DNA from: a virus
Taxonomy: Duplodnaviria; Heunggongvirae; Uroviricota; Caudoviricetes
Length of the DNA: 9,602 nt
IMG/VR virus record: IMGVR_UViG_2695420708_000010
Strand: one strand, 5' to 3'
Positions 428-9,602 of this stretch are shown here, in pieces. Position numbers and translations under genes: made by a program. Within the stretch, counting starts at the first letter, position 1; the number at the start of each line of letters is the position of its first letter. The notes under the pieces were generated by a model. That model saw only the letters and a list, made by a program, of their open reading frames with translations, was not told where the DNA came from and did no database searches.

Positions 428-763
428 ATGAAGTGGATTGTGATTGATACAGTTATCCAGCCATCATGCGGAATATCTTTTTCAGTCATATGGAGTAAAA
501 TAAAATTAATAATCTGGTATCAATCGGATGCTTTCTTACCTCCTGAAAGTATATTTACACTGACTCACACAGGCATCATGCTCAATAACAAAGTGCTACC
601 TGTAACCATTTACAACGTAGTACCATTCAATAAAACATTCTGGAATTCAATCAAAAATAGCCAGGAATGCCCTACAAATACAGATAACGTATTGAATGAA
701 TGCTTTAATAACCGTTGCACTCTGCAAATATGTCCTTATGGACTAAAACAACAAAGTCCATAA
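428..763 (+). CDS. Hypothetical 111-aa protein, AT-rich, four Cys in the C-terminal 30 residues; no family recognised
   Basis: ORF track; ATG with AAGGAA RBS about 8 nt upstream and a candidate promoter; opposite orientation to all neighbouring genes; identical second copy at 3672..4007. Confidence 0.45.
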
Positions 764-797
764 GGAGTTTACTCACATCTGACAAAATCAATATAAA

Positions 798-819
798 CAG
801 CCCCTCCGGAGAGGGGCTG
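798..819. terminator. Perfect 9-bp stem, 4-nt loop hairpin (CAGCCCCTC-CGGA-GAGGGGCTG); intrinsic terminator for minus-strand transcription, possible 3' end for ORF 428..763
   Basis: On the minus strand the hairpin is followed by a U-rich tract (TTTATATTGATTTTG); on the plus strand there is no T tract after it. Confidence 0.5.
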
Positions 820-1012
820 GAGAGTGGCGCTATGTGCCATTGCATGGTGCCGGGTGCCTCCCGGTGAATTCAGTACCAGCACCTGAATCCGCGATTATCC
901 CATATACCTACTCGCTGATTGCCCCTCCGCACAGGGGGATTCACCATGCCAGTTTCTTTTAACAAACTCCCCGCAAAACAGACAACTGTCAACCGTCTGA
1001 ATTGTGAGACAT

Positions 1013-1040
1013 TTAAAAAAAAGGCCCGCAAAAGCGAGCC
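1013..1040 (-). terminator. Rho-independent terminator immediately downstream of the Arg-UCU tRNA
   Basis: Minus-strand RNA GGCUCGC-UUUU-GCGGGCC (7-bp stem with one G-U pair) followed by eight U. Confidence 0.7.
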
Positions 1041-1054
1041 AGGGAAAATAAGTG

Positions 1055-1131
1055 TGGCGCGTTGTACTGGATTCGAACCAGTGACCGATTGCTTAGAAGG
1101 CAATTGCTCTGTCCGGCTGAGCTAACAACGC
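1055..1131 (-). tRNA. argO: tRNA-Arg, anticodon UCU (reads AGA), 77 nt with encoded CCA
   Basis: Hand-folded cloverleaf: acceptor GCGTTGT/ACAACGC, D stem GCTC/GAGC, anticodon stem ATTGC/GCAAT with loop CTTCTAA, T stem ACTGG/CCAGT with loop TTCGAAT. Symbol assigned from memory of the Stx-phage ileZ-argN-argO cluster; not verified. Confidence 0.88.
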
Positions 1132-1144
1132 ATGATGCAGATAA

Positions 1145-1221
1145 TGGACCGCCATCGGGGACTTGAACCCCGCGCAGCCAGCTTCGAAGGCTGGCGCTCT
1201 TTCCTGATGAGCTAATGGCGG
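1145..1221 (-). tRNA. argN: tRNA-Arg, anticodon UCG (reads CGA/CGG), 77 nt with encoded CCA
   Basis: Hand-folded: acceptor CCGCCAT/ATGGCGG, D stem GCTC/GAGC, anticodon stem CCAGC/GCTGG with loop CTTCGAA, T stem CGGGG/CCCCG with loop TTCAAGT. Unusual 5' C. Symbol from memory; not verified. Confidence 0.8.
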
Positions 1222-1228
1222 TATGTGA

Positions 1229-1304
1229 TGGTGGCCCTTGCTGGATTTGAACCAGCGACCTGGCGATTATGAGTCGCTCGCTCTCACCACTGAGCTAAAG
1301 GGCC
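1229..1304 (-). tRNA. ileZ: tRNA-Ile2-like, anticodon CAU (ileX/ileZ type, presumably lysidine-modified to read AUA), 76 nt with encoded CCA
   Basis: Hand-folded: acceptor GGCCCTT/AAGGGCC, D loop AGTGGTGA, anticodon loop CTCATAA, T loop TTCAAAT. Resembles E. coli ileX as I recall it; Met versus Ile cannot be settled from sequence alone. Confidence 0.85.
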
Positions 1305-1344
1305 GGGAGCCGCATAATAACGACGCGTAATTAATTCTTCAATA

Positions 1345-2403
1345 TCATCCGTTCTGGCTGACTAAATCCTGTACTTCCCGAACCGTCTGCTCAAAACGTT
1401 CAGTCTCCAGCTCAACGCCAATTGCACGACGCCCGAGCGCCAGTGCCGCTTTCACTGTCGAACCCAACCCCATGAAAAAATCTGCAATCAGGTCACCCGG
1501 ACGACTGCTAGCGCTGATTATCTGCTGCAGCATTTCTGCCGGTTTTTCGCACGGATGTTTCCCGGGATAGAACTGCACCGGTTTATGCGTCCACACATCG
1601 GTATACGGCACCTGCACCGTCACGCCAAAATACCGCCGCAGATGTTTATATTCACTCAGCAGCTCCGCATACTGCCGGTTCAGTGAGGTATACGTATCCA
1701 CCAGCTGGTGGTGGAGCTTTTCCAGTTCACCACGCCGATGCTTCTCTTCTGCCACCCGGGCAAACAGCGCCTGTAATTTCAGATAATCGCTTTCATTCGG
1801 CAACTGCCACTGACCGGCACTGAACCAGTGCGACACCATGTTTTTCTTTCCTGTGGCATCTGCAATCTGTTTTGCCGTTATCCCCAGGGCAGCTCGCGCA
1901 TCACGAAAGTAAGAAATCAGCGGGGCCATCACATGCTGTTTCAGTGCACTGCCCTTCGCCGCATACCCGGCATCTTTCGGACGATACGGCCCCTGATAAT
2001 GTTCCGCGAACAGAATGCGCTCTGTGGCGGGGAAATACGCCCGCAGGCTTTCCTTGTTGCATCCGTTCCAGCGTCCGGACGGCTTCGCCCAGATAATATG
2101 GTTCAGCACACTGAAGCGTTCACGCATCATGATTTCGATATCAGATGCCAGGCGATGACCACAGAACAGGTAAAGACTTCCGGCAGGTTTCAGCACCCGC
2201 CAGAACTGCGCCAGACACTGGTCCAGCCACTTCAGGTAATCATCGTCGCCCTTCCACTGGTTATCCCAGCCCTCAGGCTTCACTTTAAAGTACGGCGGGT
2301 CCGTGACTATCAGGTCAACAGAATTTTCGGGTAACGACCGGATAAATTCCAGGCAGTCGGCGTTGATTAACTCACAACTGGATATTTTTACAGTATTAAG
2401 CAT
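1345..2403 (-). CDS. DNA methyltransferase, beta-class N6-adenine or N4-cytosine (N6_N4_Mtase family), 352 aa
   Basis: ORF track. Motif IV DPPY (VDLIVTDPPYF) precedes the AdoMet motif I (DFFMGLGST), the order that defines beta-class amino-MTases; C-terminal HPCEKP...ASSRPGD block resembles YhdJ-type enzymes. ATG start, weak SD. Confidence 0.9.
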   Translation of the reverse strand: MLNTVKISSCELINADCLEFIRSLPENSVDLIVTDPPYFKVKPEGWDNQWKGDDDYLKWLDQCLAQFWRVLKPAGSLYLFCGHRLASDIEIMMRERFSVLNHIIWAKPSGRWNGCNKESLRAYFPATERILFAEHYQGPYRPKDAGYAAKGSALKQHVMAPLISYFRDARAALGITAKQIADATGKKNMVSHWFSAGQWQLPNESDYLKLQALFARVAEEKHRRGELEKLHHQLVDTYTSLNRQYAELLSEYKHLRRYFGVTVQVPYTDVWTHKPVQFYPGKHPCEKPAEMLQQIISASSRPGDLIADFFMGLGSTVKAALALGRRAIGVELETERFEQTVREVQDLVSQNG

Positions 2404-2435
2404 GGATCATTAAGCCTGTCTCTGATAGGCTCATT

Positions 2436-2454
2436 CTGCTTTTGCGCAAAGCAG
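2436..2454. promoter_or_regulatory. Imperfect palindrome CTGCTTT-TGCGC-AAAGCAG about 33 bp upstream of the methyltransferase start; candidate operator or 5'-UTR hairpin
   Basis: 7-bp inverted arms around a 5-bp centre; no U tract, so not a terminator. Confidence 0.35.
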
Positions 2455-2495
2455 TGGGCCTGAGGTTTGCTTGTGAACCCAACGCATGAGCAGAT

Positions 2496-2526
2496 GGCTG
2501 GTGGGTGCCCCTAACACCCACCAGCC
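2496..2526. other. Perfect 12-bp stem, 7-nt loop hairpin (GGCTGGTGGGTG-CCCCTAA-CACCCACCAGCC) between ORF 2554..2751 and the methyltransferase
   Basis: Arms are exact reverse complements; not followed by a U tract on either strand; function unknown. Confidence 0.5.
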
Positions 2527-2537
2527 GCCCATTTACC

Positions 2538-2566
2538 ACAAATAAAAAAGCCTTCACTGCGGAAGG
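2538..2566 (-). terminator. Rho-independent terminator overlapping the stop codon of ORF 2554..2751
   Basis: Minus-strand RNA GCCUUC-CGCAGU-GAAGGC followed by UUUUUUAUUUG. Confidence 0.65.
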
Positions 2567-2751
2567 CGTCTGTAACAACCGAACTGATAGTCTGCCAGAC
2601 CCGCCATAACCAGCTGGGTCAGTATTAACTGGCAGCGTTCGCGTGAAAGGTAAGTATTCTGCGCTATCTCCCCGACTGTCGCCGGTTCGGTAACGCTTAA
2701 TTCATTAAACACCACTCTGGCGGTTTCTGTCATATCCTGCTGTTTTAGCAT
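2554..2751 (-). CDS. Hypothetical 65-aa protein with a helix-turn-helix-like segment (TVGEIAQNTYLSRERCQLILTQL); possible small DNA-binding regulator
   Basis: ORF track; ATG at 2751..2749 with AAGGAAAAG RBS; ends in a terminator; lies just upstream of the methyltransferase. Confidence 0.5.
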   Translation of the reverse strand: MLKQQDMTETARVVFNELSVTEPATVGEIAQNTYLSRERCQLILTQLVMAGLADYQFGCYRRLPQ

Positions 2752-2869
2752 GTCTTTTCCTTTTCCGGTTAACGTGACACACCAATAACTCTTGTCGAAA
2801 AAGCCAGCAAGCTGAAAGACAGGTATTCACCGCCACCAGCGCGTTTACTGTACTGACGCGATTTCAGTC

Positions 2870-2896
2870 ATAAAAAACCCGCTCGGCGGCGGGTTG
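2870..2896 (-). terminator. tR'-like terminator, second copy (identical to 5209..5235)
   Basis: Minus-strand RNA A-CCCGC-CGCCGA-GCGGG-UUUUUUAU; lies inside the 2870..3394 repeat block. Confidence 0.7.
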
Positions 2897-2942
2897 TAGA
2901 AACTCTTCTAACGTCAGGCATAAAACGCCCATAGTTATGACG

Positions 2943-2970
2943 AATTTACCACAGATTCCGGAAAAATCAA
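2943..2970 (-). promoter_or_regulatory. PR'-like late promoter, second copy (identical to 5282..5309)
   Basis: Same sequence as the promoter downstream of the intact Q gene, offset 2339 bp. Confidence 0.4.
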
Positions 2971-2975
2971 CCTTG

Positions 2976-3394
2976 TTACCTAGTTACCTTTTTTAACTGC
3001 CGCTCAGCCCATGCTTCTTCAATATCAAACCGGGTCACCAGCGCATCATAAAATTTCTTAACTGTTTTTTCCCATGACGCGCGTGTTATCTGGTTTGTCA
3101 CCTCGCATATAGCATTAAATGCCTCCGTTGATGGTAGTCTTTCATAGCCACGACCACCACAACGCTGGCAGTCTCTGATAACAGGCATACCACGTTTTAC
3201 CGACTCTTCACGATGAATGGCGACACCACGCCCACGGCAATCCTTACAGGCGGTGGAAACCTCACCCTTTCCGCCACACTCCGGACAGGCAACTTTTACC
3301 ACCTCCCTGACTTTTTTCCATTCTTCCCAGTAAGACGGATACACACCTTTCGTACACTTTGCCCATACCGGCGGCTTACCATCCGGATACTGGA
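2976..3394 (-). pseudogene. 3' fragment of a Q-like antiterminator gene (C-terminal ~139 codons with the CxxCxGxG zinc-finger repeats), fused at 3394/3396 to the AT-rich module
   Basis: 2870..3394 matches 5209..5733; the intact gene's N-terminal ~134 codons are missing. The 191-aa track ORF 2976..3551 takes its first 52 codons from AT-rich module DNA with a GTG start and no SD. Confidence 0.8.
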
Positions 3395-3604
3395 AAGTGT
3401 TTAAATGCCATGGTTCTTTCCACCATCTGAAAAATAATTCTTTAAAATACCTGACATGTAATACAGAAAAAACACAAAACCATACCTTAAATAAAAACCT
3501 GATTATCAAGCAGATATGCATGGATAAACTACAAGACGAGATATAAACCACCCTGCATTTAAATAAACAATAAACAACATCAGAAAAATAATTCTGCTCT
3601 ATGG

Positions 3605-3631
3605 TTTACATTCAAAAATATCATTTATACT
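3605..3631 (+). promoter_or_regulatory. Candidate sigma70 promoter for ORF 3672..4007 (copy of 361..387)
   Basis: Identical sequence to copy A. Confidence 0.4.
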
Positions 3632-3671
3632 TTTCAGAACATCACCAGCAAGGCATAAACAAGGAAACTAA

Positions 3672-4007
3672 ATGAAGTGGATTGTGATTGATACAGTTAT
3701 CCAGCCATCATGCGGAATATCTTTTTCAGTCATATGGAGTAAAATAAAATTAATAATCTGGTATCAATCGGATGCTTTCTTACCTCCTGAAAGTATATTT
3801 ACACTGACTCACACAGGCATCATGCTCAATAACAAAGTGCTACCTGTAACCATTTACAACGTAGTACCATTCAATAAAACATTCTGGAATTCAATCAAAA
3901 ATAGCCAGGAATGCCCTACAAATACAGATAACGTATTGAATGAATGCTTTAATAACCGTTGCACTCTGCAAATATGTCCTTATGGACTAAAACAACAAAG
4001 TCCATAA
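3672..4007 (+). CDS. Hypothetical 111-aa protein, second copy identical to 428..763
   Basis: ORF track; identical translation; same RBS and promoter. Confidence 0.45.
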
Positions 4008-4041
4008 GGAGTTTACTCACATCTGACAAAATCAATATAAA

Positions 4042-4063
4042 CAGCCCCTCCGGAGAGGGGCTG
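4042..4063. terminator. 9-bp stem hairpin, copy of 798..819
   Basis: Identical sequence to copy A. Confidence 0.5.
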
Positions 4064-4287
4064 GAGAGTGGCGCTATGTGCCATTGCATGGTGCCGGGTG
4101 CCTCCCGGTGAATTCAGTACCAGCACCTGAATCCGCGATTATCCCATATACCTACTCGCTGATTGCCCCTCCGCACAGGGGGATTCACCATGCCAGTTTC
4201 TTTTAACAAACTCCCCGCAAACCAGACAACAGTCAACCGCCTGAATTGTGAAGTATTTAAAAATTTCTCCCGCTAACTGATACCCGG

Positions 4288-4374
4288 CTAACAGTCTGGC
4301 GTTTTCTTTTTCAGCAACGGGAAAGCAACAACCACCACACCCGCCACCAGCACACCGTCAGCCAGCACTGACAT
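4288..4374 (-). CDS. Candidate 28-aa hydrophobic peptide (MSVLADGVLVAGVVVVAFPLLKKKTPDC), single predicted TM segment then a basic tail
   Basis: Own translation; ATG at 4374..4372, stop TAG at 4290..4288; only a weak GGA SD; below the ORF-track size cutoff. Confidence 0.25.
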   Translation of the reverse strand: MSVLADGVLVAGVVVVAFPLLKKKTPDC

Positions 4375-4454
4375 TATCCGGCTGCTGCAATGCCATTCAC
4401 AAAAACAGTAAGCAATCACTTTTTACCGTAACAGGTGATAATCCAGATATGTAT

Positions 4455-4781
4455 CTACCCCAGATGAGTAATCCGAAGTTCATCCATACCACAGGTCCTG
4501 GCTATTCTGTTGTACTCCTGAACAAGAGCAAATAATTCTGAATTAGCAACCATGAACTCATCGCAAACCCTCTGTATAGCATCACTATTCAGAATAATAA
4601 CGTCTCTTCCCGAAAGACGATCAGGAGTACAGAACAAAACTGTCAAACGGCTGAAGGCCTTTGCTCGTGCTGCATTGACTATATCAATACGCTGCCTAAG
4701 GATGAAACACCCCGACGCCTCATCAATATTCACTCTACCCACACCATATGAATGATAAATATTTAATGCTGAAAAAACCAT
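4455..4781 (-). CDS. Hypothetical ~108-aa protein (117 aa from the TTG at 4808); no family recognised
   Basis: ORF track 4455..4808 begins at TTG; first ATG is at 4781..4779; no convincing SD for either start; sits directly downstream of the tRNA cluster on the late strand. Confidence 0.3.
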   Translation of the reverse strand: MVFSALNIYHSYGVGRVNIDEASGCFILRQRIDIVNAARAKAFSRLTVLFCTPDRLSGRDVIILNSDAIQRVCDEFMVANSELFALVQEYNRIARTCGMDELRITHLG

Positions 4782-4918
4782 TAGACCGTATAACAAACAC
4801 TCAATCAATACTTAACAGAACTTTTATTTTTGACAAACATAAAATATTTTCAACAATATCCTGAGCCAGGTATATTTCAGTATAAGGCTCTGCCGGAAGG
4901 AATCTGGAAGAATGAATA

Positions 4919-4995
4919 TGGCGCGCTGTACTGGATTCGAACCAGTGACCGATTGCTTAGAAGGCAATTGCTCTGTCCGGCTGAGCTAACAACGC
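4919..4995 (-). tRNA. argO: tRNA-Arg, anticodon UCU, 77 nt; differs from the 1055..1131 copy by one acceptor-stem change giving a U-G pair
   Basis: Same hand-folded cloverleaf as 1055..1131; plus strand reads GCGCTGT where the other copy reads GCGTTGT. Confidence 0.85.
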
Positions 4996-5008
4996 TGAAT
5001 ACCGATAA

Positions 5009-5088
5009 TGGACCGCCATCGGGGACCCGCCCCCGCACCAACAACCCTGTTATCATGTCGTCTGCTCTTCCTGATAAGCTAATGGCGG
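5009..5088 (-). pseudogene. Degenerate tRNA-Arg-like element: acceptor stem and D arm conserved, anticodon arm, variable loop and T loop replaced
   Basis: The 5' ~25 nt and 3' ~17 nt align with the intact Arg-UCG tRNA at 1145..1221; the middle (AGACGACATGATAACAGGGTTGTTGGTGCGGGGGCGGG) gives no anticodon stem-loop by eye and the T loop lacks TTC. Confidence 0.55.
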
Positions 5089-5095
5089 TTTGTGA

Positions 5096-5171
5096 TGGTG
5101 GCCCTTGCTGGATTTGAACCAGCGACCTGGCGATTATGAGTCGCTCGCTCTCACCACTGAGCTAAAGGGCC
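5096..5171 (-). tRNA. ileZ: tRNA-Ile2-like, anticodon CAU, 76 nt; identical to 1229..1304
   Basis: Identical sequence to the other copy. Confidence 0.85.
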
Positions 5172-5208
5172 GGGAGCAGAATAATAACGGTCCGTAATTA
5201 ATTCCGCA

Positions 5209-5235
5209 ATAAAAAACCCGCTCGGCGGCGGGTTG
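5209..5235 (-). terminator. tR'-like rho-independent terminator between the Q-like gene and the tRNA cluster
   Basis: Minus-strand RNA A-CCCGC-CGCCGA-GCGGG followed by UUUUUU; about 80 nt downstream of the Q stop. Confidence 0.7.
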
Positions 5236-5281
5236 TAGAAACTCTTCTAACGTCAGGCATAAAACGCCCATAGTTATGACG

Positions 5282-5309
5282 AATTTACCACAGATTCCGG
5301 AAAAATCAA
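5282..5309 (-). promoter_or_regulatory. PR'-like late promoter (-35 TTGATT, 16-bp spacer, extended -10 TGgTAAATT); would give a ~65-nt transcript ending at tR'
   Basis: Hexamers at 5309..5304 and 5287..5282 on the minus strand, immediately after the Q stop codon (5315..5317). Confidence 0.4.
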
Positions 5310-5314
5310 CCTTG

Positions 5315-6136
5315 TTACCTAGTTACCTTTTTTAACTGCCGCTCAGCCCATGCTTCTTCAATATCAAACCGGGTCACCAGCGCATCATAAAATTTCTTAA
5401 CTGTTTTTTCCCATGACGCGCGTGTTATCTGGTTTGTCACCTCGCATATAGCATTAAATGCCTCCGTTGATGGTAGTCTTTCATAGCCACGACCACCACA
5501 ACGCTGGCAGTCTCTGATAACAGGCATACCACGTTTTACCGACTCTTCACGATGAATGGCGACACCACGCCCACGGCAATCCTTACAGGCGGTGGAAACC
5601 TCACCCTTTCCGCCACACTCCGGACAGGCAACTTTTACCACCTCCCTGACTTTTTTCCATTCTTCCCAGTAAGACGGATACACACCTTTCGTACACTTTG
5701 CCCATACCGGCGGCTTACCATCCGGATACTGGATCTTGTTTGTAAAAACCTCGCTTTCAATAAATTTTTTTCCGTGACAGCAGGGGCACTGTTTTTTGCT
5801 CGCCGCGCTACGGGCATAATCTTCAAACGCATACGAAGCCATAATACGCATCACTGCCGGTTTTATTTCTGCCGGGAGTTTTCTTAACGCCGCCACGCGA
5901 TCACACCGACTGAGTGCATATTCTGTCAGCAATTCTGTTGCCCGCTCTCTGTCATTCATACTAATGCCCATTTTCCCAAGGAACGCAGAAACCCCCATCT
6001 CAGCCCGATTCTGTGTCATGCCCTGCGCGGCCATCACATCAGTGATACTCAGCGCATCTTTCGACGTTGAGGCCGATGCATCAGTCAGGCCGGGGGATTT
6101 TGGGGAGTAGTATTTCGGTAAATCTTCCAGTTTCAT
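5315..6136 (-). CDS. Antitermination protein Q-like, 273 aa, with DnaJ-type CxxCxGxG zinc-finger repeats
   Basis: ORF track; position between rusA and PR'/tR'/tRNAs is the canonical lambdoid Q position; ATG overlaps the rusA stop (ATGA); motifs CPCCHGKK, CPECGGKG, CKDCRGRG, CQRCGGRG. Family assignment rests on synteny and motifs, not a search. Confidence 0.75.
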   Translation of the reverse strand: MKLEDLPKYYSPKSPGLTDASASTSKDALSITDVMAAQGMTQNRAEMGVSAFLGKMGISMNDRERATELLTEYALSRCDRVAALRKLPAEIKPAVMRIMASYAFEDYARSAASKKQCPCCHGKKFIESEVFTNKIQYPDGKPPVWAKCTKGVYPSYWEEWKKVREVVKVACPECGGKGEVSTACKDCRGRGVAIHREESVKRGMPVIRDCQRCGGRGYERLPSTEAFNAICEVTNQITRASWEKTVKKFYDALVTRFDIEEAWAERQLKKVTR

Positions 6137-6513
6137 TTTTTGACCTGCCCTTCAAGCATTATGGGATAAATCTTCACCCCCAGACGTCCACCAGATACTG
6201 GCTGAGCACGAACGATATTGATTTCATCAAACTGCTCATCGTCCATTAGCAACCCCGCATGCGTCAGCGCATCCAGCGGCGCTTTCAGAATATTGTCCAG
6301 GTCACGGCGGCGCTTATCCGGTGGTTCTGCAATAATTTTTATTGCCAACCTTCCGGACAGGCTTAATTTCAGCCGCTGCTGGCGAACAATAAGCGCCACT
6401 GCCCGGCGATAACGCTCCCCGGCTTTTGATACAAAATATGTGCTGCCACGACGACGCCAGTAAGTGTTCACCGTCGGCGGGTAAGGTAAAACAAATTCTA
6501 TGCGCTCGGTCAT
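6133..6513 (-). CDS. rusA: Holliday-junction resolvase RusA, 126 aa
   Basis: ORF track; shows the RusA-family DxxRRRDLDN motif as I recall it; usual nin-region position just upstream of Q. Confidence 0.88.
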   Translation of the reverse strand: MTERIEFVLPYPPTVNTYWRRRGSTYFVSKAGERYRRAVALIVRQQRLKLSLSGRLAIKIIAEPPDKRRRDLDNILKAPLDALTHAGLLMDDEQFDEINIVRAQPVSGGRLGVKIYPIMLEGQVKK

Positions 6514-7572
6514 TTATGCTTTCCACTTCAGAACACCCGAATTTCTCGCGTGCATTAAAAAACGAATCAGCAACAACAGCTGACTGCCGTGTTTCTCTTC
6601 AAAATCTTTTACTCCGGCATGTAGTTCGTTACGGCATTTACGGCATAACGGAATAACAAACAAATCATCAGCCTTTGTTCCCATCCCTCCCAGTCCATGA
6701 CCAATGATGTGATGCGGATCATCTGCCTGATTGCCACACGTCATGCATTTCTGCGTTTTTACCCAGCGCGTGTATACAGGCATCTCTTCCCGTTGTGATT
6801 TCTGGCGCTGGAGATACTGAGCCGGTGACTCCGGATCAACGGCAATGCTGACCACCGTCTTTTCCTGTGGTGGGTTCTGTTGCTGGTGGACGTGAGGCAG
6901 TAACGCAATATTTTTTGTGCGCTGCTTCAGTATGCTGGTGGCTGTCTGCTCTCCCGGTATGATGTCGCTTTCACTGTACACAGAGCGAATTTTTTCCGCA
7001 CGCAACCCCAGCGAACGACGTAATACCGCTTCCGGTAGCGCGTCCGCCACCTGATTGCGGACCGCCCACCAGGATAATTCAGCCAGAGATAATTCACGCT
7101 CCTGCGTACCGCTTATTGCGTGACCGATGACGTCAATCATCCATGCTGACAGGTTTTGATGAGCAAGTTGCTCGAGTGATTCGGATGTCTGGTCACGCAG
7201 CTGGTTGTCGCAGTGCCAGCACAACACCATTGCGCCGGTACCATAACGGTGAATGACGGTTTCGCTGTGATGATAATCGCCGTGTGGCCACTGGCAGGAT
7301 TTAATATGGCGCAACAGCCAGTCAGACAATGCACCAGCACCACCAGCAGCACGAATCACCCGTGCGTTACTGAAAAACGGCAGCAATGTTTTGTCTTCCA
7401 CCAGCGGCTGGCGAGCGGCAGGAACGACCCCGGACGGCAGATTACGCATGCTTTTTGGTTCCGGCTCCACCAGTATTCTGCCGTTATGGAATGCTGACAT
7501 TGATTCACGGCCTGGCTTAACGATAACCAGACCGAGTTCCGGTACCAGAACAGGTCGAAGTAATACCCGCAC
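6514..7572 (-). CDS. DUF968-like prophage protein (YdfU-like), 352 aa, with a Cys/His-rich C-terminus (CMTCG...DPHH...CRKC)
   Basis: ORF track; GTG start at 7572 with GGAGG 5 nt upstream; family assigned from memory of Qin-prophage ydfU neighbourhood and motifs. Confidence 0.7.
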   Translation of the reverse strand: MRVLLRPVLVPELGLVIVKPGRESMSAFHNGRILVEPEPKSMRNLPSGVVPAARQPLVEDKTLLPFFSNARVIRAAGGAGALSDWLLRHIKSCQWPHGDYHHSETVIHRYGTGAMVLCWHCDNQLRDQTSESLEQLAHQNLSAWMIDVIGHAISGTQERELSLAELSWWAVRNQVADALPEAVLRRSLGLRAEKIRSVYSESDIIPGEQTATSILKQRTKNIALLPHVHQQQNPPQEKTVVSIAVDPESPAQYLQRQKSQREEMPVYTRWVKTQKCMTCGNQADDPHHIIGHGLGGMGTKADDLFVIPLCRKCRNELHAGVKDFEEKHGSQLLLLIRFLMHARNSGVLKWKA

Positions 7573-7573
7573 A

Positions 7574-7852
7574 TTACCTCCAGATCCGTTGCTGGAATGT
7601 GCGGGACGGACGCGTTGGCCGTTCGGAGTAAGGGAGCCTGACGGAGATTATCCAGTGACGGTAGTCGAGGCTAAGGGCTTTTTTAACCTCGCATCCGCGC
7701 CTGCGGTAACACTGAATGAGCCATTCGGCCTGTTCTTCAGTGCATGGGGGATGCTGGTACCAATCAGATTTAAATGCGTGAGAGCGCCGCCCGTGCCTGC
7801 TGGCAAAGACGGCTGAATTATCAGAATTGTGTAGTCTGGAATTTTGCGCCAT
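7574..7852 (-). CDS. Hypothetical 92-aa protein
   Basis: ORF track; ATG with GGAG SD about 8 nt upstream; stop one base before the DUF968 start codon. Confidence 0.5.
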   Translation of the reverse strand: MAQNSRLHNSDNSAVFASRHGRRSHAFKSDWYQHPPCTEEQAEWLIQCYRRRGCEVKKALSLDYRHWIISVRLPYSERPTRPSRTFQQRIWR

Positions 7853-7918
7853 CGGCTTTCTCCGGTGGCACAGTGTTACTCAACAGGGGTTCAGCCCTGC
7901 GCTGAATTGTAGATGAAT

Positions 7919-8179
7919 TCACTCATCTTCAAAAGCAGAAAAACCAGCCTTAATCCCAGCTTCTTTCAGAGACGGCAACGATGTGACAAATTCATTTGCA
8001 CGCGAAATAAAACCATCCGTCACAAGCCCATCCACAAAATGAATTAACGCAGCTCCACTCTTCCTTTGTTGAGACTGTAAACATTTAATACGGCAGTGGC
8101 TGACAATAGCGCCATTCTCAACGCGCACAGTATAGAGGCCATCTTCACTAAAAATTTCACGTAATTCTTCGATTTTCAT
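7919..8179 (-). CDS. Hypothetical ~86-aa protein (possibly Rem-like, by position only)
   Basis: ORF track 7919..8182 starts at TTG; the ATG is at 8179..8177 with GGAAGGA about 9 nt upstream. The Rem suggestion rests only on the ydfU-rem-hokD gene order of the Qin prophage. Confidence 0.5.
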   Translation of the reverse strand: MKIEELREIFSEDGLYTVRVENGAIVSHCRIKCLQSQQRKSGAALIHFVDGLVTDGFISRANEFVTSLPSLKEAGIKAGFSAFEDE

Positions 8180-8300
8180 CAACAGAATCCTTCCAGATAA
8201 ATAGCACTCCCCTGTTCGGGGTCCATCCCTCTTCTCCCTGCGCGCTACTTAAGTATTTTTGATTCTATTCCGGCACCATCTAAAACTTCAAACGCGTTGA

Positions 8301-8329
8301 AAATAAAAACAAAAACCCGCCGAAGCGGG
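8301..8329 (-). terminator. Rho-independent terminator downstream of hok (UUCG tetraloop hairpin plus U tract)
   Basis: Minus-strand RNA CCCGC-UUCG-GCGGG followed by UUUUUGUUUUUAUUU. Confidence 0.7.
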
Positions 8330-8399
8330 TTAAGTGTGGGTGCATTGAGGATGCCTGACCCATCAGAGGTGGCGAGGGATTTCTCCCCCGCCTGGTCTC

Positions 8400-8555
8400 T
8401 TACTCCTCAGGTTCGTAAGCTGTGAAGACAGCGACCTCCGTCTGGCCGGTTCGAATTCGTACCTCGCAGAGGTCTTTCCTCGTTACCAGTGCCGTCACTA
8501 TGACGGTTAAACAGATGACGATCAGGGCGATTAACATCGCCTTTTGCTGCTTCAT
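8400..8555 (-). CDS. hokD: Hok/Gef-family type I toxin, 51 aa (HokD/RelF-like)
   Basis: MKQQKAMLIALIVICLTVIVTALVTRKDLCEVRIRTGQTEVAVFTAYEPEE is a classic Hok sequence and matches HokD as I recall it; ATG at 8555..8553 with AGGAG 9 nt upstream. The track ORF 8400..8612 is an in-frame 19-codon upstream extension. Confidence 0.88.
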   Translation of the reverse strand: MKQQKAMLIALIVICLTVIVTALVTRKDLCEVRIRTGQTEVAVFTAYEPEE

Positions 8556-8766
8556 AGCCTGCTTCTCCTTGCCTTTCGGCACGTAAGAGGCTAACCTAGA
8601 TTTGCCGTTCATAGATTGAGCCTCAGATTAATGTTAAGCGTCTTGCCGGACGCGTAATGTTAACTGGGGCTTTTCTCTATCTGCCTTTTGGTGTTCATGC
8701 CTGAGACAGATAGCCTCAAGCACCCGCTGCAATTCTACTTAACTCTCCTTTTCCCGCAAACCGTTT

Positions 8767-8850
8767 TTATCCCCAGCGGCAAATCGAATACACCACCAGC
8801 GCCACCGCCATCGCAATTCCTACCGTTGTTAATGCTTCAGGCCAGGTCAT
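8767..8850 (-). CDS. Candidate 27-aa hydrophobic peptide ([27 protein letters not shown])
   Basis: Own translation; ATG at 8850..8848 overlaps the stop of the upstream 114-aa gene (ATGA); GGAGGA about 9 nt upstream; below the ORF-track size cutoff. Confidence 0.35.
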
Positions 8851-9191
8851 CGTAAAATATCCTCCACGCTTATCAGTCCGTTCCGCTCCAGATAACTCAT
8901 CGCCTTATCCGGTAATTTGCAGTCTGGCTTCGCTTTTCTCAGTTGCCAGGTTAACTGCTTTACCAGCATGGTTAACTCATCGACCAGACGCTGATATCCC
9001 ACTGGTTTGTATTCATGCAATTTACCGGCTGGCTCTGCTGCCAGCGATACCAGTGCGATTTCCAGAACAGCAATATCCATCTTATATGTGCGGATGATGT
9101 CATGGTCGATTGTGCCCGGTATGCACAGTCTCTGTGCTTCAATAGTCTCCTCTGCGTGAGCTATTAACTGCTCTCTGGTAAAAGTCGTCAT
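8847..9191 (-). CDS. Hypothetical 114-aa protein
   Basis: ORF track; start overlaps the stop of the upstream 55-aa ORF (ATGA); N-terminal half resembles that ORF. Confidence 0.55.
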
Positions 9192-9355
9192 GCCGTAGCC
9201 CCTTCTTGATATTTTTCAAACCAGAACACAACCGGCTCTGCTTCCAGCGATGCCAGCGCAATCCGTGCCAGTTCCATTTGTTCACCACGGGTAAGCCCGT
9301 TTTCAAGCGGGTTTTTAATGAACAATTCAATACGTTCTTTGGTAATAGTGGTCAT
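9188..9355 (-). CDS. Hypothetical 55-aa protein, paralogous to the N-terminal half of the 114-aa ORF
   Basis: Own translation ([55 protein letters not shown]); AAGGAG SD 7 nt upstream; the track reports the overlapping out-of-frame ORF 9139..9330 instead. Confidence 0.5.
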
Positions 9356-9365
9356 GTGTTACTCC

Positions 9366-9596
9366 TTAACCCGCAGTGCTTTCAACTGATGAGGGGAACA
9401 AAATCTTTTCATCAAACCCTGCATTCATATCATGAACAGCAACACACCAATCCATCGACGAACGATTATCAAGAGCCTCCATGATTTCATCCATGCGGCG
9501 TAGGTCATACAGGTAAATGCTTTTATCGCCAATGGTGTAAAAGCCAATTTTTTTCGGTGATGGATGAGGTGTACTGGCAATAGCGGACACTACCAT
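9366..9596 (-). CDS. Hypothetical 76-aa protein; start codon and first 10 codons lie in the right terminal inverted repeat
   Basis: ORF track; ATG at 9596..9594; upstream region is outside the window. A plus-strand ATG at 9564 opens an outward frame (MRCTGNSGHYHLF) in the same region. Confidence 0.45.
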   Translation of the reverse strand: MVVSAIASTPHPSPKKIGFYTIGDKSIYLYDLRRMDEIMEALDNRSSMDWCVAVHDMNAGFDEKILFPSSVESTAG

Positions 9597-9602
9597 TTGT
9601 TC
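9565..9602. repeat. Right arm of terminal inverted repeat (reverse complement of 3..40)
   Basis: See left arm. Confidence 0.9.

Follow-up and report, generated by a model that had tools for sequence, protein, structure and literature searches.

The open reading frame at nucleotides 428–763 of the plus strand is iraL, a paralogue of iraM carried by prophages; we put the probability of this reading, with a product that binds RssB and blocks the handover of sigma-S to ClpXP, at about 0.93. It lies in a 9,602 nt stretch of viral DNA, the whole of which was analysed and is referred to below as the window. The first-pass annotation had presented the product as an orphan of unknown function. Neither term can be retained: the protein matches a curated family model and all but one residue of a published protein, the gene was characterised in 2014 (PMC4045071), and the paralogous protein has been crystallised together with its target (8TWD). 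Gene, promoter, target and phenotype are all known from the 2014 work.

The identity of the gene was established by comparison with family models, structures and sequenced genomes. Both copies of the ORF, the second of which is described below, scored 162 bits with the NCBIfam model NF007393 ('anti-adapter protein IraM'; cut-off 121), and residues 1–110 aligned with positions 1–113 of the 114 in the profile. A phmmer comparison with PDB entry 8TWD chain A, which comprises IraM residues 1–78 in the RssB-bound state, gave an E-value of 6.3e-31, and IraM (YcgW/ElbA) of E. coli K-12 (NC_000913.3) aligned with the window protein over 107 residues, without gaps, at 61% identity. IraL of uropathogenic E. 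coli CFT073 (c1429, WP_000871291.1), the gene for which is located in the potB prophage, is identical at 110 of 111 residues, the one exception being residue 74, which is Ser here and Leu in CFT073. Promoter and coding sequence show a mean column identity of 99% to CFT073 iraL over 624 nt, with two coding differences, and two base changes fall in the UTR region. The IraL protein of Shigella sonnei, the gene for which was also studied in 2014 (PMC4045071), is identical to that of the window. At least 999 contigs carry precisely this sequence under the name of IraM from Shigella sonnei or Shigella. PGAP labels the homologous ORF 'anti-adapter protein IraM', and among 5426 complete E. coli genomes 80% or more of the region from 300 to 1000 of the window is present in 1432.

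In the literature the iraL subtype is delimited by nucleotide identities of at least 95% to the CFT073 iraL coding sequence and at least 96% to its promoter. Both the coding sequence and the promoter described here lie within these limits, and, judging by sequence, a transcript start of the type mapped by RACE would be situated downstream of sigma-70-like hexamers. The Pfam-A library contributed little. An hmmscan of the ORF returned only a sub-threshold, meaningless match to Nairovirus_NSm, and no PmrD match was seen at E-values up to 10 for the window protein, K-12 IraM or three relatives. Since K-12 IraM itself is without a Pfam-A match, this negative result reflects the library rather than the protein. 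Precomputed labels in the protein collection assign PF11183 (PmrD) to the window protein and to all of its relatives.

The iraL promoter occupies nucleotides 361–387 of the plus strand, its -35 hexamer TTTACA (361–366) being separated by a 15 nt spacer from the -10 hexamer TATACT (382–387). The 5' UTR extends from 395 to 427 on the same strand and contains a Shine-Dalgarno sequence, AAGGAA (417–422), that ends 5 nt before the ATG. The 5' end of the CFT073 iraL mRNA was mapped by 5' RACE as ACATCACCAGCAAGGCATAAACAAGGAAACCA (PMC4045071), and nucleotides 395–426 of the window match this published 32 nt sequence with a single mismatch. By homology to this transcript the predicted +1 of the window gene is nucleotide 395, 7 nt past TATACT. 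Both hexamers are identical to those of CFT073 iraL and the 250 nt upstream are near-identical; because this near-identical locus has been RACE-mapped, the promoter proposed at first pass has experimental backing in CFT073, and the proposed ribosome binding site was found as described. A generic promoter scan that allowed spacers of 16–18 nt did not flag the iraL promoter because its spacer is only 15 nt long, and the sites that the scan did list were no commoner than in shuffled sequences. The gene was further said to be the only clearly signalled one on the plus strand. This proved wrong, since an identical promoter, UTR, Shine-Dalgarno sequence and ORF recur in the window, with the coding sequence at 3672–4007.

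The ORF starts with ATG at 428, ends with TAA at 761–763 and specifies 111 amino acids, in agreement with the first-pass annotation; five of these are cysteines (C14, C81, C92, C97 and C102). The AT-bias remarked upon there is also real: the GC content is 34.5% in the ORF and 29% in the 250 nt upstream, compared with 47.4% for the window and 49–53% for the adjoining phage genes. An AT-rich non-coding spacer may contain open frames by chance, and in 73 of 2000 shuffles (3.7%) of the 843 nt region from 177 to 1019 an open stretch at least as long as this ORF was obtained. The length of 111 codons is thus only modestly unusual and is weak evidence on its own, so that support for coding rests on homology and on dN/dS. 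Between iraL and K-12 iraM, which share 69% nucleotide identity, dS is approximately 1.8 (saturated) and dN 0.26, and the resulting dN/dS of 0.146 is a clear indication that the protein is under purifying selection. It had been proposed that a frame lost from related copies would point to a non-coding region; the frame is intact in all copies compared, namely those of CFT073, two other E. coli prophages, eight S. sonnei chromosomes and four phages of the vB_EcoS-640R1 group, and this favours coding. A search of the protein collection yielded 20 clusters, all from Escherichia and Shigella, and among the 15 representatives aligned the frame is kept without frameshift down to 53% identity. Together with the match to a curated family model, the crystallised paralogue and the protein-level experiments published for IraL, these results rule out a chance frame, to which we attach practically no weight.

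Membership of the IraM family might also be taken to mean that the gene is the functional equivalent of K-12 IraM, silent in unstressed cells and switched on by Mg2+ starvation or acid through PhoQ/PhoP. On the minus strand at 316–332, approximately 70 nt upstream of the transcriptional start, is a direct repeat that resembles a PhoP box, TGTTTATTGTTTATTTA, with one mismatch to KGTTTA-N5-KGTTTA. One good-looking site of this kind precedes each copy of iraL, but the total for the whole window, three, is that expected by chance (3.35 from shuffles). Promoter, UTR and protein are all of the iraL and not of the iraM type, and the literature treats the two as non-overlapping sequence groups. According to the same literature Mg2+ starvation induces K-12 iraM by way of PhoP; iraL, in contrast, acts in unstressed logarithmic phase, where it is both expressed and active (PMC4045071). 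The regulatory influences reported for iraL are different ones, its expression being raised in the absence of Fur and upon a shift from 23 to 37 °C. The iraM subtype is characterised by a PhoP-dependent promoter and a position adjoining e14; K-12 iraM lies beside this element and not in the slot between Q and the lysis genes, while the window gene occupies another locus, has 61% protein and 69% nucleotide identity to iraM, and is accompanied by PhoP-box-like sites at chance frequency. Equivalence to K-12 IraM is, in our opinion, highly improbable, and the gene is treated as iraL in what follows.

The product would be a small cytoplasmic protein with an N-terminal PmrD-like beta-barrel (residues 1 to about 78) and a Cys-rich C-terminal tail. 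Its N-terminus can be aligned position by position with beta-strand 1 of the barrel of cytoplasmic IraM, in which I4 and I6 contact RssB; a signal peptide or a lipoprotein was rejected on these grounds, and the first-pass annotation had also seen no canonical signal peptide. An AF2 model was of low confidence (mean pLDDT 61.5) and showed an IraM-type barrel of seven strands and a helix at residues 69–76. A fold search with this model returned 8twd_A as the best PDB match (E-value 2.4e-5) followed by the PmrD structures 4hn7 and 2jso, with TM-scores of only 0.37–0.45.

In the crystal structure, IraM docks on the alpha4-beta5-alpha5 face of the RssB receiver domain through I4, I6, W22, K26 and I42, and in addition touches the C-terminal domain of RssB through T13, C14, F18, W30 and L75 and the linker through I61–I64 (PMC10844676). 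All five receiver-domain contacts (cluster I) are identical in the window protein. Three of the five residues directed at the C-terminal domain (cluster II) are retained, the substitutions being T13S and L75I, as are two of the four residues directed at the linker (cluster III: I61, Y62, H63 and I64), with H63N and I64V; P66 of IraM is identical as well. CFT073 IraL co-purifies with RssB, and in two-hybrid experiments it interacts with the N-terminal receiver domain only; according to the 2014 paper, the interaction with RssB is not the same for IraL as for IraM (PMC4045071). The pattern of conservation across the three clusters, as read from the alignment, fits the published binding of IraL to the N-terminal domain alone.

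Published work on close relatives gives the outline of a probable mechanism. IraL would bind the response-regulator-like adaptor RssB, docking on the alpha4-beta5-alpha5 face of its receiver domain by analogy with the IraM-RssB crystal; this binding mode is extrapolated from IraM. RssB would thereby be stopped from passing sigma-S (RpoS) to ClpXP, and sigma-S would accumulate during exponential growth without added stress. In CFT073 and S. sonnei, IraL raises the level of sigma-S in logarithmic phase, an iraL deletion has a phenotype in both, and the sigma-S half-life is roughly doubled by IraL, dropping in CFT073 from about 5 to about 2.5 min when the gene is deleted (PMC4045071). The evidence on the CFT073 protein includes immunoblots and half-life measurements. 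RssB binding and stabilisation of sigma-S are probably properties of the S74 allele in the window also, by analogy with the CFT073 protein, to which it is 110/111 identical, and with the S. sonnei iraL deletion (PMC4045071).

Several related proteins bear on this assignment. K-12 IraM shares with the window protein, in addition to the receiver-domain contacts, the four C-terminal cysteines, and differs from it in that the window protein is four residues longer and has other residues at some of the positions that face the C-terminal domain and linker of RssB. PmrD (4HN7, 2JSO), which according to PMC10844676 is alone in sharing the fold of IraM, is likewise a small binder of a receiver domain and accounts for the second and third fold matches of the AF2 model. 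Its identity to the window protein is approximately 15%, its target is PmrA, it protects phospho-PmrA and is activated by PhoP, and it has no such Cys-rich tail. The window protein probably shares the fold of PmrD; in our reading it is not a PmrD orthologue. RssC of Salmonella has been reported as an IraL/IraM-like anti-adaptor with an identity of only about 47–49%, and was not among the sequences retrieved by our searches.

A closer relative is found in Stx2 and Stx2c phages, among them phages 1717 (ACI43140.1) and 2851, as an IraM-like ORF of 107 amino acids with 74% protein identity. Like iraL it is transcribed opposite to the late genes and occupies the same slot, upstream of a nanS-p/DUF1737 gene and a holin gene. 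It differs in being located directly downstream of stx2cB and in having the same length as IraM, 107 residues, and it is mostly unannotated or listed as 'hypothetical'. We found no functional study of this paralogue in the literature, and an IraM-family gene adjoining stx2c may merit the attention of specialists.

The C-terminal tail also deserves comment. None of the 15 family representatives, down to 53% identity, departs from C81, C92, C97 and C102, which give a spacing of C-x10-C-x4-C-x4-C and end in a conserved ICPYG; C14 varies across the family between Cys and Ser. Structural work on IraM employed the tail-less form, residues 1–78, and described the tail as less conserved and flexible (PMC10844676); cysteines or zinc in the tail are mentioned neither there nor in the binding study of 2015. 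Perhaps the four cysteines make up a knuckle, sensitive to redox state or able to bind zinc, on which the anti-adaptor's stability or activity depends, a suggestion that we offer as speculative and rather doubtful. The AF2 model, in which the tail has a pLDDT below 50, says nothing for or against it. Were it correct, the knuckle would couple stabilisation of sigma-S to metal or oxidative status. No study of its role was found, and the invariant Cys4 tail may merit the attention of specialists.

The phage genes around iraL are all encoded on the minus strand and comprise hok/mok, DUF968, RusA, Q and tRNAs, followed by the cargo region. The complete Q-type antitermination gene (5315–6136, minus strand, 273 amino acids) was recognised from the ORF list, the PGAP annotation ('antitermination protein') of homologous loci and the Pfam Antiterm domain (PF03589) of the identical S. 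sonnei product. It shows which way late transcription runs, and iraL is read the other way. A cluster of three tRNA genes (Met/Ile-type CAT, Arg-TCG and Arg-TCT) was located at 1023–1304 on the minus strand by ARAGORN and Rfam, and is followed by a strong intrinsic terminator at 1040–1023 on this strand (terminator scan). Immediately downstream of iraL and convergent with it is a gene for the STnc100 sRNA at 789–978 on the minus strand (RF02076; 133.6 bits against a gathering threshold of 47, over the full-length model); its intrinsic terminator (terminator scan), a GC-rich stem at 819–798 with a T-tract, lies 35 nt past the iraL stop codon. On the other side, the 5' remnant of a DUF1737 (nanS-p-type) gene was found at 3–176, also on the minus strand (PF08410, E-value 1.2e-15). 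This is the first lysis-side gene; it is cut at 40/41 by IS600, and the same junction is present in S. sonnei chromosomes. The antisense position of iraL with respect to the late operon, noted at first pass, is borne out by these assignments.

Relatives that are intact carry, one after the other, Q, tRNAs, (DUF3927 etc.), iraL (encoded on the opposite strand), DUF1737, holin, lysozyme and Rz. CFT073, two further E. coli, S. sonnei and phage vB_EcoS-640R1 all have iraL in this slot and in this orientation. The likeness to CFT073 covers the -35 and -10 hexamers, the region of the transcriptional start and the Shine-Dalgarno sequence as well as the opposite-strand location between Q/tRNAs and DUF1737/holin; the difference is that the prophage of the window is cut by IS600 on both sides and shows two copies. 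The gene is present in CFT073, phage 640R1 and one of the two S. sonnei loci described below (locus B) and absent from the other, locus A, which has the same backbone. With its own promoter, its deviant GC content and its presence or absence among similar phages, iraL is a moron of the slot between Q and the lysis genes of lambdoid prophages, the position taken by stx in Stx phages, and the first-pass view of the gene as horizontally acquired cargo holds.

This arrangement suggests how the gene could be expressed. In the lysogen, iraL would be transcribed independently of Q from its own sigma-70 promoter on the opposite strand, and the terminators at 1040–1023 and 819–798 may shield it from leftward transcription that is not antiterminated. 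Upon induction, Q-modified polymerase would read through these terminators, which could result in antisense collision with iraL. The prophage around iraL is a decayed remnant bounded by IS600, and may no longer have any connection with the life cycle of a phage.

The window contains iraL twice. Nucleotides 152–1019 recur as 3396–4263 with six differences, all after 977, so that the second iraL unit at 3605–4007 (plus strand; promoter 3605–3631, UTR 3639–3671, CDS 3672–4007) is identical to the first, and a second STnc100 gene follows at 4033–4222 on the minus strand (RF02076, 132.4 bits). Between the two lies the 3' portion of a second, truncated Q gene (2976–3394, minus strand), recognised from the ORF list and by self-BLAST; the repeat to which it belongs, 2870–3394, is 100% identical to 5209–5733. 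The two-copy layout is created by a non-homologous junction at 3394–3396, where the middle of Q is joined through one extra 'a' to nucleotide 25 of the DUF1737 gene. The window starts with the terminal 40 nt of an IS600 element (1–40) and finishes with the terminal 38 nt of a second, inverted copy (9565–9602), nucleotides 3–40 being an exact inverted repeat of 9565–9602 by self-BLAST. Comparison with S. sonnei agrees, the adjoining element there being annotated 'IS3-like element IS600 family transposase'.

Each segment of the window has its match, at 99.8–100% identity, in one or the other of two prophage remnants that lie approximately 0.78 Mb apart in S. sonnei 53G (HE616528.1). Locus B (1.31–1.33 Mb) has the order IS600, truncated DUF1737, iraL, STnc100, DUF3927, a 117 amino acid ORF, tRNAs and a Q of 284 amino acids, and locus A (2.09–2.11 Mb) the order STnc100, three tRNAs, methylase, a 65 amino acid ORF, the Q of 273 amino acids, RusA and DUF968, continuing to a 76 amino acid ORF and IS600. 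Read against these, the window runs from B (1 to about 900) to A (about 900–3394), then, after the one extra base, to B (3396–5208) and again to A (5209–9602). Copy 1, together with the IS600-truncated DUF1737 gene, is identical to the authentic locus B, and the identity of iraL is unaffected by the question of the junction.

The source genome may hold a single iraL gene, the two-copy layout, and with it the placement of copy 1 beside the methylase module, being a chimera of the two S. sonnei remnants introduced by assembly or scaffolding. Besides the near-perfect identity of all segments to the two loci, the positions of the switches speak for this: the first falls inside a 132 nt stretch (846–977) that is identical in A and B, the third exactly where homology between A and B starts (5208/5209), and the junction itself exactly at the first A/B SNP (5734, T vs C) past the shared 3' half of Q, its other side lying 4 nt into a 24 nt stretch identical in A and B. 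The junction was also found in none of the genome sets searched. Megablast of nucleotides 3150–3650 against the 5426 complete E. coli genomes gave no locus covering it, and an exact 44 nt pattern across it had no match in IMG/VR. The same pattern had none among the GTDB representatives, a species-level set that is uninformative here, since one genome presumably stands in it for E. coli and Shigella together. When IraL, the methylase and the 273 amino acid Q were looked up in S. sonnei chromosomes, this disclosed only the separate loci A and B without the junction, while exact-protein look-ups of the truncated Q found no record of the 191 and 181 amino acid forms, and the 108 and 122 amino acid forms only in frameshifted-Q contexts unrelated to a two-copy layout. 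Against a chimera, the junction offers no overlap or repeat for a de Bruijn assembler to join, and its one untemplated base fits genuine illegitimate recombination too. A single event between two natural types of module, iraL-STnc100-three tRNAs as in E. coli SW070919 and iraL-STnc100-DUF3927-117 aa-tRNAs-Q as in CFT073, would yield the layout; strain JJ1886 is on record in the literature with two copies of iraL, and the Shigella genomes compared are only a sample. We consider the chances of a real illegitimate recombination and of an assembly chimera to be about even. If real, the layout would add a second case to that of JJ1886, in which the dosage of the anti-adaptor is doubled.

There is little here that is new about the gene itself, iraL having been published in 2014 and the structure of its paralogue with RssB in 2023. 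What the window illustrates is that iraL, in the same slot between Q and the lysis genes that is used by the Shiga toxin genes, is prophage cargo that rewires a core stress pathway of the host, RpoS being kept high in growing uropathogenic E. coli and Shigella.

The window carries two identical copies of iraL, the gene for a 111-aa RssB anti-adaptor of the IraM/IraL family, at 428-763 and 3672-4007, both on the plus strand. The second iraL-STnc100 module, together with a truncated copy of the antitermination gene Q, results from a non-homologous junction at 3394-3396, where the middle of Q is joined through one extra base to nucleotide 25 of the DUF1737 (nanS-p-type) gene. Around it, 152-1019 is repeated as 3396-4263 and 2870-3394 as 5209-5733. 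The window segments trace to two prophage remnants of S. sonnei 53G (loci A and B). The junction coincides precisely with the first SNP that distinguishes these loci, and it was absent from 5426 complete E. coli genomes, the GTDB representatives, IMG/VR and the S. sonnei chromosomes examined. Based upon these two observations, it may be an assembly chimera.

Both edges of the window are formed by IS600, represented by its terminal 40 nt on the left (1-40) and 38 nt on the right (9565-9602), the two copies being mutually inverted. The left element cuts the DUF1737/nanS-p-type gene at 40/41, while the right one removes the 5' end of a gene for a 76-aa ORF; S. sonnei chromosomes have IS600 insertions at sites identical to both. 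Among the other prophage genes we found, on the minus strand, a hok/mok toxin gene in the nin-like region (8400-8725; a 70-aa Mok frame with Hok inside) with a match to the Sok antitoxin RNA (Rfam RF01794, 112 bits). In copy 2 alone, STnc100/iraL is separated from the tRNAs by two further minus-strand ORFs, one of 117 aa with no Pfam match (4455-4808) and a DUF3927 ORF of 43 aa (4288-4419). Both are likewise neighbours of iraL in CFT073 and in S. sonnei locus B.

Each iraL copy is convergent with a full-length gene for the prophage sRNA STnc100 (Rfam RF02076), located on the minus strand at 789-978 (133.6 bits) and 4033-4222 (132.4 bits). The STnc100 terminator hairpin (819-798) lies 35 nt past the iraL stop codon. 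Read on the iraL strand, this hairpin lacks a U-tract, so iraL transcripts might continue antisense into the STnc100 gene. Partial matches to window 793-1000 occur at up to 12 places per E. coli genome, EDL933, for example, having eight. Approximately 70 nt upstream of the transcription start of each iraL copy is a PhoP-box-like direct repeat, TGTTTATTGTTTATTTA, on the minus strand (316-332 and 3560-3576), with one mismatch to KGTTTA-N5-KGTTTA. Across the window such matches were no more frequent than in shuffled sequences.

Precomputed labels in the protein collection assign IraL and all its relatives to Pfam PF11183 (PmrD), whereas hmmscan against the Pfam-A copy used here returned no family for IraL or for K-12 IraM, a discrepancy between library versions. 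The IraL tail (residues 81-102; window 668-733) possesses four cysteines at fixed spacing, C81-x10-C92-x4-C97-x4-C102, followed by PYG. Crystallography was done on IraM without this tail (PMC10844676), and its cysteines are discussed neither there nor in the 2015 binding study. All four are invariant in 15/15 family representatives, with identities down to 53%.

A third IraM-family variant, for which our literature search found no functional study, is encoded by Stx2-converting phage 1717 (FJ188381.1, 26252-26575; 4516-4839 in our L028 sequence). This 107-aa protein is 74% identical to IraL, and its gene is placed between stx2cB and a nanS-p-type gene, on the opposite strand. It is also present in about 40 other Stx2/Stx2c phage records, mostly unannotated or as 'hypothetical', with one labelled iraM.
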